This document shows, piece after piece, positions 4,055 through 38,297 of a stretch of DNA of 64,000 nucleotides (positions are counted from its first letter, which is position 1; every line of letters begins with the position of its first letter). The position numbers and the translations under genes were made by a program. The notes under the pieces are model-generated. The model ran no database searches. It was not told the DNA's origin and worked only from the letters and a program-made list of their open reading frames with translations. Source of the DNA: Haliotis rubra (Eukaryota); NCBI RefSeq assembly GCF_003918875.1, contig NW_025765324.1:88041-152040 (forward strand), in the 5' to 3' direction.

Positions 4055-4216
4055 TGAAGTGAGTGAGTGAGTATTGTTTTACGCCGCTTTTAGCAATATT
4101 CCAGCAATATCACGGCGGGGATCACCACAAATGGGCTTCACACATGGTACCCATGTGGGGAATCAAACCTGGGTCTTCAGCGTGACGAGCGGACGCTTTA
4201 ACCACTAGGCTACCCC
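4055..4216 (-). mobile_element. SINE-A copy
   Basis: Reverse complement of the family consensus (gagtgagtgagtattgttttacgccgcttttagcaatattccagcaatatcacgg...ctaggctaccccaccgcccc). Confidence 0.8.
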
Positions 4217-8274: not shown

Positions 8275-8510
8275 GGTAAGAAATGTGGTTTGATTAGTGG
8301 AGTTATCTCCCTATGCCAGTAAGGAATGGTGAAGCCACGAGGCATGTGTTTTGATGCCTGTCTTTGAACCGTATATTCTGATACCCAAGAGATGAATGGA
8401 GCCTATCGAACCACATACATTCTTAACTGTATTCCTTATTTTCATGAAAACACAGGCCTCGTGGCTTCACCATTCCTTACCAGCCAAGGGAGATGACTCC
8501 ACTATTCTCT
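8275..8510. mobile_element. Foldback element abutting TEP1 first coding exon
   Basis: Arms ggagttatctccctatgccagtaaggaatggtgaagccacgaggc (8300-8345) and gcctcgtggcttcaccattccttaccagccaagggagatgactcc (8457-8501) are reverse complements about 110 bp apart. An extra direct half-copy ggagttatctcccttggtcggtaag sits at 8257. The right arm contains the ATG at 8493. Confidence 0.5.
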
Positions 8511-9233
8511 TCTACAGTCACCCTCACATCTTTCTCACCTGCAGTTAGTTGTCCACAACATTCCTATTACAGCATGTGTTGTAATCATAGATTGTTTGTT
8601 CAAGGTTTAAAAGGAGGACTTGGCGGGTCAAGTCTACTCTCGACATCCAAAACTGCTGATGCAGGTCGTAAGCGGAAAGGAAATGATTCCTCTGATGTTG
8701 ATAAAAAGAAGACAAAAGACACATCGTTTGCTACCCAGAGTTCTCTTCTCAGCACAGAGCTGACCCAGAAATTAACACTATCGTCCAGCTTGACTGGCAG
8801 CAGTTTACTGTCCGGCAGTAGCCTACTGTCTGGTGGACTGTTAACAAGTTCTTTAACAAAAACACTGTTTGTTAAATCTACAAGAACTAAAGATGACCAT
8901 AATGAAAAATCGAGCGAAAGCTCGTTGGAAAAAAACCCAAAGAAAGTGAAATCTACAAGGGCTGATGGACCTTCAAAGAGACAGTCAATTGAGGTCAAGG
9001 ACAAAGGAAGGAAGGTGTCCAAGTTGTCCAAGGCCGCCAAACTGCCCAAAGAGAAGTCCAAGGAACCAGGATTCAACTACAAGGCGTACGAGACCAGCTA
9101 CCCAGATTACAACTTTGCTGGGATGTATGCTGGGGAGAGTTTTGAAGTGCCGAGCTTCATGCCGCCAGACAAGGATGTTAGAGTCAGCAAACACCTTGTG
9201 GCAGCGCCACTCTGTGATGTGAACGGCTTGAAG
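8493..9233 (+). CDS. TEP1: TEP1-like exon 1 (first coding exon seen; low-complexity N-terminal region)
   Basis: Open frame from ATG 8493 to donor aag|gtgagt (GT at 9234). S/T/K-rich segment ending ...KEPGFNYKAYETSYPDYNFAGMYAGESFEVPSFMPPDKDVRVSKHLVAAPLCDVNGLK. True 5' boundary uncertain: an acceptor-like ttctcttctacag ends at 8517 and upstream exons may exist. Confidence 0.5.
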
Positions 9234-9795
9234 GTGAGTGATTGGTTAGCATCATTAGATTAGCCCATTGATGTAGAAAGTATGACATATAGCTGTTATA
9301 ACATTGATACAGGGTTAGGAATTTATCAGGCATACAGGTTTTAGTAGTCCAACTAGGTTATATTTGAACAATTGCTTTCAACAATTGTATTTTTATGCAA
9401 TGATACATTGTACTTGTCCTGAAGGACATAATTATATTGAGAATGGGATGCACCAAGAATTTCGCTGCCTATGACTAAAGCTACTGTTCCAGAGCCTACA
9501 GCCTTTAAAATTTCTTTCCGTCAAGAACAGTTAATGATCAATTACAGTTCAAGTTGTGTGATGAACATTATCATCAGCCTGCTTATGATAACTCAATTGT
9601 ACGACACCCGACTGTTTTGAATATTTTTTTAGTCCATGTTCAAAAAGGCATGCTAAGTAATGAAACACAAATGACATCTAACCTTGCCGAAGCTGTTTAT
9701 ATTTATCATGTATAACCTGCTCTCTTTCATGTATGTCAGTATGTTTGATGGTAATTATAATAACAATAGTTATCTTTCTTACATATTCTTTCCAG

Positions 9796-9930
9796 CATGC
9801 ATTTATCAATGCTGTAAGTTCATCCCTTATCTGCGCACCGAACTTCAAGGATTCCAAGGACAAGGCCAGAATTGACCTCATTGCCATGTCAGAGAAGGTC
9901 ACGACCTATGACCCAGAGTTTCTTCTGAAG
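9796..9930 (+). CDS. TEP1: TEP1-like exon 2 (TROVE)
   Basis: Acceptor ttctttccag|cat, donor ctgaag|gtaagc. Phase 0-0. Peptide HAFINAVSSSLICAPNFKDSKDKARIDLIAMSEKVTTYDPEFLLK. Confidence 0.7.
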
Positions 9931-10087
9931 GTAAGCTTAAGGTGTTAAAAGTTGGACAAATTTAACATCTGTTAACTAAAAACAACTATGATCACAATGA
10001 TGCACCCACAATGTTGGCCTTCTCAGTTCAGCCAATTATTAGTAAATTTAACTTATTTATAAATGCTTTTTGTTAATTTTTGGTCAG

Positions 10088-10249
10088 GTTGCCTTACACA
10101 CAAGAAAAGGTTTGAACATCCGAACTACAGCCAACTTTTTGCTGGCACTGGCTGCAAATGTAAAGTTGTGTCGCCCATACATGAGAAAATATTTCTCTGC
10201 TGCCATCAACCTGCCCTCCGACTGGATTGAAGTGGCAGAAATCTACCAG
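10088..10249 (+). CDS. TEP1: TEP1-like exon 3 (TROVE)
   Basis: Acceptor ttttggtcag|gtt, donor taccag|gtgagg. Peptide VALHTRKGLNIRTTANFLLALAANVKLCRPYMRKYFSAAINLPSDWIEVAEIYQ. Confidence 0.75.
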
Positions 10250-10596
10250 GTGAGGATGATTTTCTGTTCATCTGTCTGTTATGAAAGGTACAAGATTACA
10301 GGTTCAAGAGGTTTTTGCTTTCATCTGTGGTTAACTTGATGTAGGAAAACTGATATCAATGTATAACAGTTAAATCCTAAACTGTTGAAACATGTCCAAA
10401 TTTATGAGAAGAGACTATGGTATATAGTGTATTATATATATCACGCTTCCGTACAAAATATACAATGACCTCAGGAACAATTATTACAGGCAGCAATCTG
10501 TTCTCTTTTTATTTTCAAATGGTAATTTGTCATGTTTGATAATTTTTGACTGCAGAAGTTATTTTATATATCTAACTGTTCTGTCATTAACTTCAG

Positions 10597-10693
10597 GCAT
10601 TCCATGATGATGGCCTGACATTCGGGGCACTCCCTGCAGCCTTGAGACGAGTTATGGTGGCAAAGTTTCCAGATTTTGACAAATACCAGCTTG
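10597..10693 (+). CDS. TEP1: TEP1-like exon 4 (TROVE)
   Basis: Acceptor aacttcag|gca, donor cagcttg|gtaggt. Peptide AFHDDGLTFGALPAALRRVMVAKFPDFDKYQL. Ends with 1 carried nt. Confidence 0.7.
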
Positions 10694-10892
10694 GTAGGTT
10701 ATAGTTTATGTCACCATCAGTCATCCATGCTCGCTGTCATTTCTATGTGGACATATAACTTACCAAACCACCCATACTTCCACTCCCCACCCACCATCAC
10801 TTCAGCCAAATTTCCAAAACCAAATTCTTTCAAAAATTAAATATGCAACCCTAACAATCCCCTCAGGTTGTTCTGTCAAAATCACCCCTCTT

Positions 10893-11140
10893 TCAGTCTA
10901 ATACGAACCCATGAAGATCCAGGTTAGAATTGATCTTCAGTAACCCATGCTTGTCGTAAAAGGCGACTAATGGGTCGGGTGGTCAGGCTTGCTGACTTGG
11001 TTGACACATGTCATCGTATCCCAGTTGCGTACATCGATGCTCATGCTGTTGATCACTGGATTGTCTCGTCCAGACTTGATTCCTTTCAGACCGCCGTCAT
11101 ATAGCTGGAATACTGCTGACTGATTAAACTCACTGACTCA
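10893..11140 (+). mobile_element. SINE-B copy
   Basis: acccatgaagatccaggttagaattgatcttcagtaacccatgcttgtcgtaaaaggcgactaatgggtcgggtggtcaggcttgctgacttggttgacacatgtcatcgtatcccagttgcgtacatcgatgctcatgctgttgatcactggattgtc...atagctggaatactgctgac. Confidence 0.8.
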
Positions 11141-11214
11141 ATCTAACACTAAATGGCTTCATCGTGGGGCTTCTGCAGCAAGCTTCCCTTGTTGTTTGAG
11201 GGAACTACATCTAC

Positions 11215-11520
11215 TAGTGACCGCCGTGGTGTAGTGGTTAGAGCGTCCAGCCGGGAGAGCGGAAGGTCGTGGGTTCGATCCCTGACCGCGTCATACCAAA
11301 AGACGTTAAAATATGGTACTTATTGATCCCTGCCTTGCGCTCGGCATTAATGGGTACATCAAGGACTGGTCGGCTCGGAGTCAGTATAATGTGTCTGGGT
11401 GGGGTATTCATGCTTCACTGTGGCATGGTATCTCAATGGGCTAGCACTATAAAACCAGCTTCTAGTCTGGGCTAGTACAAGCAGCCGCACTTACACATAC
11501 ACACGCATCCACGTCATCAT
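11215..11520 (+). mobile_element. SINE-C copy (tRNA-like head GACCGCCGTGGTGTAGTGGTTAGAGCG, B box GGTTCGATCCC)
   Basis: Head followed by a body ending ...ctagtctgggctagtacaagcagccgcacttacacatacac. The same tail recurs at 21285-21535 and 53790-53960. Not a bona fide tRNA gene because the acceptor stem does not pair. Confidence 0.6.
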
Positions 11521-12220
11521 ATGAGCGAAATATTCTCAAGCATGACGTTAAACCCAAATTCACCTCACCTCACATCTACTAGTTGGTGTTGTACATATCT
11601 AATGCCCCAGTCTTGCTCCTGACTGTGTCTTTTGAGGCTGTGCCAAAGGAGCATGTATATTGCTTAGTGTAGGCTGAAACAACAACGAAAGGCACAACCA
11701 TATCAAATTTATTATGTTGATGATGACTTGGAAATTCAACATGTGCTTCCTGACAATACGTATTTTGCACTCATGTTTAAATGTCTGTCTTTTGTGGATT
11801 AAATGGCATTTTAGAAGTTGGGAAGTACAATAATGGCACATTTATATACTGAAGGAACCAAATAAGGAAACACCACTTCATGGCAGTGTTCTTTTATTTA
11901 TTCTCAGATTTCCTCCCACAGCACTATGCAAAGCTGGTGATGAAAACTTTAAAGTATTAAAGGAACGCTTGAATTTTCCTGTGTTCCTTTATTTGTTTCT
12001 CTCAGTATAGATAACAACTTTAGTTTCCATATTGTGAGTGCAACATTTCTGTGCAGATTCTTGTTCTTCTGTCTTGCAGGAATGGTACAAGATTCTGTAC
12101 CGAAACATTTTCCATAAGTGTTATCCATAAGTGTGTACTGTAATTTAAGAATTCATAAAATGCTGACTTAGAATTGAGTTTTCTCAGTTTCCTCAAACTA
12201 TCACTGTGATGATTTTGCAG

Positions 12221-37189: not shown

Positions 37190-37299
37190 GAGCACCTGCC
37201 TGTCACTGGCCCATACAGAGATAATGAATGCTGTCCGTCACCGCTATCTACGAGGTGTTGCTGCAGACAAAGAACTCAACCTGCATAAACTCCTTGCAG
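37190..37299 (+). CDS. TEP1: TEP1-like exon 27
   Basis: Acceptor tttttttag|g, donor cttgcag|gtaatg. Peptide WSTCLSLAHTEIMNAVRHRYLRGVAADKELNLHKLLA. Confidence 0.65.
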
Positions 37300-37486
37300 G
37301 TAATGAATAACCAAACATGGATACTGATATCTGCAGTAGATTTATTACACTTTAAGATGAAAATACTACCTTTCATGAATTATGGGGCTGATTTTCGGAA
37401 GAATGTCCTAATTAATCGTTACAGTGAGGATGATGTCATGCTGTTGTCCACAAACATTATATGTTTGCTGCCGTTCTGTGTTTCAG

Positions 37487-37574
37487 GCTACTACCTCCGC
37501 CAGGCTGACCCTGAGAAAACAGGAACCTGGACAGGGCACACACGCGCGCCTTCAGTGAGCTGCCCTACCATCTG
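37487..37574 (+). CDS. TEP1: TEP1-like exon 28 (contains apparent frameshift in a CA/CG dinucleotide run)
   Basis: Acceptor tgtgtttcag|gc, donor catctg|gtcagt. Begins GYYLRQADPEKTGTWTGHTR in the entering frame. The conserved-looking AFSELPYHL that joins exon 29 in frame is in another frame. The switch lies in cacacacgcgcgcc at about 37540-37550; one fewer CG unit would restore the frame. Confidence 0.6.
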
Positions 37575-37689
37575 GTCAGTCTTACTCTTAGAGTTAAAGG
37601 CTTTAACTCACCTGGAAAGGGCTACACGAGCTCATCTGAACTAATGGTTATCCCATGTCTGTTGTCCATCGTTGTGAACTTACAGATGA

Positions 37690-38182: not shown

Positions 38183-38297
38183 GCTGCAAGTGGAAGCTTC
38201 ACTGACCTGAAGCTGATACTGTGTGACCTTCACTTCATCCATGCTAAGTGTAAACTTGGCCTCGCTGCCCAGCTCATGGATGACTTTGTTGCAAAAG
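38183..38297 (+). CDS. TEP1: TEP1-like exon 29
   Basis: Acceptor ctactttcag|gct, donor gcaaaag|gtaaca. Peptide AASGSFTDLKLILCDLHFIHAKCKLGLAAQLMDDFVAK. Confidence 0.7.

Follow-up and report, generated by a model that had tools for sequence, protein, structure and literature searches.

Results

A TEP1 gene in the window

The window, by which we mean the whole 64 kb stretch of DNA analysed, is metazoan DNA of about 40% G+C, in which the + strand encodes a single long gene of many exons. Judged from its sequence, this gene is an orthologue of TEP1 (telomerase protein component 1), whose product is associated with vaults and telomerase. The encoded domains follow each other in the order TROVE, DUF5920, DUF4062, NACHT, NWD1-like winged helix, APAF-1-like helical domain and WD40 repeats. 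The TROVE-domain exons lie upstream (9802-21758, + strand), where tblastn of P0004, P0075 and P0028 aligned each exon in a single frame; the concatenated exons from 9.8 to 22.7 kb matched the TROVE family of Pfam (PF05731) with E=9.4e-95 and 318.8 bits. DUF4062 (PF13271) was recognized with 54.9 bits and NACHT (PF05729) with 28.2 bits (cut-off 26.7), and the P-loop GKPGSGKT is encoded in exon 31777-31959. Within the 686-aa reconstructed query for the NACHT region, HTH_NWD1 (PF25469) covered residues 492-603 and APAF1_C (PF17908) residues 613-684. The latter match corresponds to the C-terminal stretch from the exons around the frame break described below, and it needs the frame correction.

Spliced queries retrieved proteins named telomerase protein component 1 from Lingula anatina, Octopus and Elysia, with 53%, 38% and 43% identity, respectively. 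The C-terminal WD40 query matched Elysia TEP1 with 43% identity at 100% coverage, and P0121 with 45% identity at 99% coverage. P0121 is a 1,872-aa protein whose ORF fills a Logan contig of 5,671 nt, which is probably an intron-less transcript. The closest retrieved relatives are 45-53% identical in protein. When a 5.8-billion-protein collection was searched with the three-exon peptide, a single word-sharing candidate was returned and none was significant, while longer spliced queries retrieved orthologues. Exact look-ups of the ATG-to-stop ORF that runs across the break (37228-37644) and of the large ORF at 8493-9263 found neither on record.

A junction-by-junction search from 21.6 kb to the stop gave a 41-exon part of the TEP1 model (21612-56487, + strand; stop codon 56485-56487), extending from the end of TROVE/DUF5920 to WD40, with three boundaries set by manual inspection. 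The introns are GT-AG in 40/40 cases and phase-compatible. Once two single bases are restored, the 41 exons make up an ORF of 5,589 nt (1,862 codons) closed by a single terminal stop, and over its whole length the model runs colinear with P0121 (residues 26-1867, 51.9% identity over 1,879 columns); without these two bases, the first stop is met at codon 236. Pseudogene hallmarks were sought in the 41-exon model, and neither internal stops, nor non-GT-AG introns, nor motif decay were found, the two frameshifts being the only lesions. The transitions 51815 to 52300 and 55226 to 55991 had been considered as extra frameshifts and were rejected, as a canonical donor (51889/GTAAGA), an acceptor (55295) and a second donor (55501/GTATTG) are present there.

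The introns of the gene hold several repeats. A minisatellite with a 48-nt unit and about 18.5 copies (45467-46368) abuts the exon start at 46353; its unit contains tgttcag/ATGTTGGACGGAAC and so duplicates the 3' splice site along with the opening bases of the exon that follows (MLDGT...). Since the unit includes the 3' splice site, the intron carries about 18 tandem acceptor copies. The same pattern is seen in a second minisatellite (49003-50248), with a period of 64 nt (also 23 and 41 nt) and about 17 copies, which abuts the exon start at 50252 and whose unit (TTCAG/TATGGGTGTGTCATG...) resembles an acceptor and the next exon start (YGCIVSASSDG...). A third minisatellite (13482-13993), with a 24/48-nt unit in about 20 copies, occupies part of the intron that follows the exon with its end at 13444. 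An intronic (CCCTA)n tract of about 26.6 copies (19633-19763) reads (TAGGG)n on the other strand, a telomere-repeat-like pentamer, and its location inside the gene of a telomerase-associated protein is probably a coincidence. Between exons 24496-24609 and 31227-31347 lies a long intron containing a G+C-rich block (about 26000-30500, 52-54% vs about 40% elsewhere) with 135-144-nt tandem repeats at 26937-27498; this block is probably a transposon or satellite insertion. Finally, many copies of a short interspersed repeat, with the recurring translation VWFYAAFSNIPA.SRRGTPEMGFT.CTHVGIRTRVFGVTS.RFNH, have the appearance of a SINE-like element dispersed in the introns (4071-4205, 14749-14883, 20964-21098, 21983-22129, 46716-46859 and others).

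The frame break in exon 37487-37574

The upstream coding exon (37190-37299, + strand; exon 27 in a preliminary description of this DNA) has its acceptor at 37190 and its donor at 37299/GT, reads STCLSLAHTEIMNAVRHRYLRGVAADKELNLHKLLA, and aligns to Lingula P0001 as well as to P0121. It ends in phase 1. Because one spare base (G) is left at its end, the next exon (exon 28; 37487-37574, + strand) is entered in the frame G/YYLRQADPEKTGTWTGHTRAPSVSCPTI, and two spare bases remain at the end of that exon. This exon is 88 nt long as assembled and is bounded by a canonical acceptor (tgtttcag/) and a canonical donor (CTG/GTCAGT). Its first half (37487-37539, + strand), read in the frame that the upstream exon imposes, gives (G)YYLRQADPEKTGTWTGH, which carries the family motif ADP..D.[TS]W.G. 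Its second half (37545-37574, + strand) is in the -1 frame and reads RAFSELPYHL, the conserved motif that starts the APAF-1-like helical domain. As AFSELPYHL is the most conserved motif of the protein family, it can be taken as the authentic coding continuation. The exit frame (..AHTRAFSELPYHL) joins the downstream exon (exon 29; 38183-38297, + strand), which reads AASGSFTDLKLILCDLHFIHAKCKLGLAAQLMDDFVAK and begins AASGSFTDLK, in phase 0. Near the start of exon 37487-37574 the exit frame is blocked by stops (LLPPPG-stop-P-stop-ENRN...). In the uncorrected sequence, the next exon is read as W LQVEASLT and a premature stop follows at 38208-38210.

The alignments of P0121 place the switch precisely. 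In tblastn, P0121 matches the entering frame (frame 1, 37480-37539) up to 37539 (LAGYFFQQADPDKDYTFKGN / VSGYYLRQADPEKTGTWTGH), and a separate HSP covers the exit frame (frame 3, 37545-37577), with 10/11 residues matching (RAFTELPYHLV / RAFSELPYHLV). Read against this protein, the sequence must break frame after the G of W-T-G and before the R of R-A-F, i.e. within the interval 37536-37548 (+ strand), inside the run CACACACGCGCGCC (37537-37550). This run contains the sole stretch of at least three CG units (CGCGCG) in the 64 kb window, and, owing to the periodicity of the repeat, H-T-R-A can be read across it in both frames. The frame break, its location and the conservation of both exon halves are demonstrated, far beyond chance.

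Most of what the preliminary description had observed at this exon was borne out. It had exon 27 dictate the entry phase; it placed AFSELPYHL in another frame that joins exon 29 through the donor catctg/gtcagt, a junction which is indeed in phase 0 and which follows a family motif matched by P0121; it reported a stop at the exon start in that other frame; and it confined the switch to the CA/CG run, where the two P0121 alignments also put it.

Lingula anatina P0001 ('telomerase protein component 1-like', 808 aa) aligns to 37191-37304, and its model stops exactly at the upstream exon end (...LHRLLAGN), apparently by running into an intron. The public Lingula model of the closest named relative is likewise truncated at the exon 27/28 boundary.

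Another frame break in TEP1

The gene is broken once more, at 24040-24041 (+ strand), in exon 23979-24220, where frame 1 gives ..CQFFIGMLG(T) and frame 3 gives RYGWVPDKYEVP.. / RYGWVPDKYEVPDTAEFDWV... Only two bases (AC) lie between GGC (24037-24039) and CGA (24042-24044). The orthologues read G[IL]LG[EDQ]RYGW at this place, with exactly one residue (E, D or Q) at the break point, and since the window has only AC where they have one residue, one base is missing at 24040-24041. The site is outside any repeat, in a highly conserved exon, and the junction search produced no candidate splice pair bridging it. Both breaks adjoin a CpG.

The lesion in the CA/CG run: one missing base or two surplus bases

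Both halves of exon 37487-37574 fit the family motif W-x-G-x-x-x-R-[AG]-[LF]-S-E-L-P-Y-H-L. The motif is found at the equivalent position in dozens of eukaryotic and bacterial DUF4062-NACHT homologues, as ADP..D.[TS]W.G-x-x-x-R-[AG]-[LF]-S-E-L-P-Y-H-[LQ], and the motif of the second exon half is present in 56 retrieved homologues. The spacer from G to R counts exactly three residues in 28/28 of the homologues matched by the motif pattern, and the residue before R is most commonly proline (10/28). Adding one base to the run yields three residues (G-H-T-x-R-A-F), for example HTPRAF with the codons ACA CCG CGC, and removing CG yields two (G-H-T-R).

We scored the possible reconstructions with a profile made from 45 homologue fragments covering the three exons. 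The sequence as assembled scored 49.2 bits. Adding one nucleotide raised the score to 115.5-116.5 bits when R-A-F was kept adjacent, and to 111.6 bits in the HTRAAF variant, and removing two nucleotides gave 109.4 bits, about 7 below the best reconstruction with an added base (116.5). Given the three-residue spacer in 28/28 homologues and the higher profile score, the addition of one base is favoured over the removal of two, and these comparisons of sequence suggest that one missing base is quite probably the better reconstruction. A lineage-specific shortening of the spacer by one residue is conceivable.

The preliminary description had instead proposed an extra CG unit. Its arithmetic is correct: deleting CG restores both phases and gives GHTRAFSELPYHL. 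It was also right that some indel separates the window from the true coding sequence, as to where this indel lies and as to how the true protein reads around it. The extra unit itself is probably wrong, since one missing base fits the 28/28 spacing and scores about 7 bits better. In its broader form this explanation has one CG (or CA) unit added by slippage in (CA)3(CG)3, either in vivo or during sequencing, with GHTRAFSELPYHL as the true protein. A dinucleotide run is a natural place for the slippage of a whole unit, and the resulting peptide still scores well, but the run has three units only of each dinucleotide, the spacer would be one residue shorter than in any of the 28 homologues, and the other break of the gene is a one-base deficit outside repeats. 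As the lesion, dinucleotide slippage is less well supported than one missing base, and we consider a surplus unit unlikely.

Cryptic splice sites

The preliminary description had also left room for a pair of splice sites that would keep one frame without any indel, and two such pairs do exist in the DNA, both canonical GT/AG and phase-compatible. The first uses a donor within the exon (TCA/GTGAGC, GTGAGC at 37555-37560, + strand); the exon then ends at 37554 and is 68 nt long, the frame is kept (..GHTRAPS/AASGSF..), and FSELPYHL is lost. The second uses an AG at 37514-37515 (+ strand) as acceptor; the exon then starts at 37516 and is 59 nt long, the frame is again kept (..LLA E NRNLDRAHTRAFSELPYHL..), and YYLRQADPEKTGTWTG is lost. 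The donor 37554/37555 has a crude score of about -0.2, vs 2.5 for the donor at 37575; the value of -0.2 is within the range of the donors used elsewhere by this gene (down to -1.3). The acceptor 37516 lacks a pyrimidine tract and scores -1.9, vs 4.0 for the acceptor at 37487.

Both pairs fail on homology. Each of the two isoforms drops a family-conserved segment that is still encoded intact in the DNA, and the profile score falls from 116.5 bits to 77.1 bits with the cryptic donor and to 79.4 bits with the cryptic acceptor. A rescue by splicing was therefore rejected on these grounds (about 37-39 bits lost, and one conserved motif half deleted in each case) as well as on the quality of the splice sites. 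A correct sequence whose frame is maintained through 37554/37555 or 37516 is very unlikely, the more so as the break at 24040-24041 is not repairable by splicing. These two positions are best seen as cryptic sites, which might at most come into use given a real frameshift.

Recoding

Another way to keep the sequence as it stands is to suppose that both deficits are genuine and that TEP1 would still be made by -1 recoding, through ribosomal frameshifting or polymerase slippage, with one nucleotide read twice per site, here on CACACAC/CGCGCG. The shift needed is indeed -1 at both sites, and it would give the canonical three-residue spacer. Moreover, the spliced mRNA 3' of the run folds better than shuffled sequences (z = -2.39; 3/200 shuffles as good). 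However, this z-score is weak and the predicted structure is loosely multibranched and not of the compact, stimulatory kind; no X XXY YYZ slippery heptamer was found at 37530-37550 or 24030-24045; and the orthologues, including the apparently transcript-derived P0121, have uninterrupted ORFs. We know of no precedent for two independent recoding sites within a single cellular gene. We regard recoding as extremely improbable; were it true, the window would hold a metazoan cellular gene recoded at two places.

Discussion

The TEP1 gene of the window is broken at two places, each of which looks like the loss of a single base. We propose, with a probability of about 0.6, that both breaks stem from consensus indel errors in the assembly. 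A consensus deletion error (made in base-calling or in polishing), or a haplotype mosaic, would have left one nucleotide missing inside CACACACGCGCGCC; two surplus nucleotides are a less likely outcome. The real gene would then most likely read ...ADPEKTGTWTG-H-T-x-RAFSELPYHL/AASGSF..., where x could be P, and a like deficit of one base would have arisen once more in TEP1, at 24040-24041.

The argument is one of pattern. Both deficits are small and isolated, and they stand in a conserved gene that is otherwise intact, with 1,862 codons and 40 introns. Two isolated one-base deficits next to CpG in such a gene are the signature of consensus indel errors or of haplotype-mosaic artefacts, and this points to a technical origin rather than to germline mutation. 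In nanopore assemblies, consensus errors of the deletion type are enriched at homopolymers and methylated motifs. The homopolymer spectrum of the window (longest A/T run 9, one C13 run) is uninformative on the sequencing technology. If the assembly is a highly accurate one (e.g. HiFi, with a QV of at least 50), two errors in a 5.6 kb CDS would be most improbable, and the better explanation would then lie in real mutations.

A genuine germline frameshift is the main competing possibility, although a less probable one. The window would then carry a segregating loss-of-function allele of TEP1, or a TEP1 gene in the course of becoming a (very young) pseudogene. Two independent frame-breaking deficits in one gene speak for this, and one-base deletions are the commonest natural indel. 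The rest of the gene speaks against it: 1,862 codons are free of stops, 40/40 introns are canonical, and conserved motifs follow directly downstream of both breaks. A pseudogene old enough to have fixed two indels has usually decayed further, but a very young one need not have done so. Two frameshifts with neither a nonsense nor a splice mutation would fit a very young pseudogene, and we roughly estimate that no other lesion would be seen in about 0.3 of such cases.

The consequences differ between these two explanations. In the germline case, translation would stop early, at 38208-38210, which would expose the mRNA to nonsense-mediated decay, and any protein made would be without its helical domain and the entire set of WD40 repeats (about 1,100 residues). 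Real deficits would thus amount to the loss, or to a segregating null allele, of TEP1 in an animal. TEP1 is dispensable in the mouse, where it is non-essential, and it is absent from several animal lineages; given that several lineages are known to lack it or to do without it, its real loss here would be of modest interest.

As a probable artefact, an indel in a gene already known, the finding is an ordinary one, and its consequences are for annotation. An automatic model would truncate or split TEP1 at this exon, adopt a cryptic splice site, or label the gene a pseudogene. A homology-guided correction, with one base inserted at 37536-37548 and one at 24040-24041, would give back a full-length TROVE-NACHT-WD40 protein. 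Two such sites in a 5.6 kb CDS are also a warning on the indel accuracy of the assembly.

The gene can finally be set beside four known systems. With known TEP1 it shares the domain order, and the model is colinear with the 1,872-aa orthologue P0121; it differs from it in that the ORF as assembled is broken at 24040-24041 and at 37536-37548, breaks that are seen in none of the retrieved orthologues. With the wider group of DUF4062-NACHT STAND NTPases (NWD1, NPHP3 and bacterial nSTAND relatives), it has in common the motif R-[AG]-[LF]-x-E-L-P-[YW]-[HQ], of which RAFSELPYHL is an instance, together with the upstream ADP..G.W.G and the G-xxx-R spacing. In the window, unlike in these proteins, the motif lies in a different frame from the residues that precede it.

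With young unitary pseudogenes and segregating null alleles, the window shares the CDS of a known gene carrying frame-breaking indels, but its gene is free of the nonsense codons, the splice-site loss and the motif decay. The resemblance to assembly artefacts is one of pattern only. According to PMC12007338, assemblies of error-prone long reads can acquire frameshifts and premature stops by which genes are falsely pseudogenised. PMC8445201 deals with apparent frameshifts that arise in a collapsed diploid consensus and are gone with allele-specific assembly. Isolated one-base deficits in otherwise intact conserved ORFs are the feature that the two breaks of the TEP1 gene have in common with both kinds of assembly.
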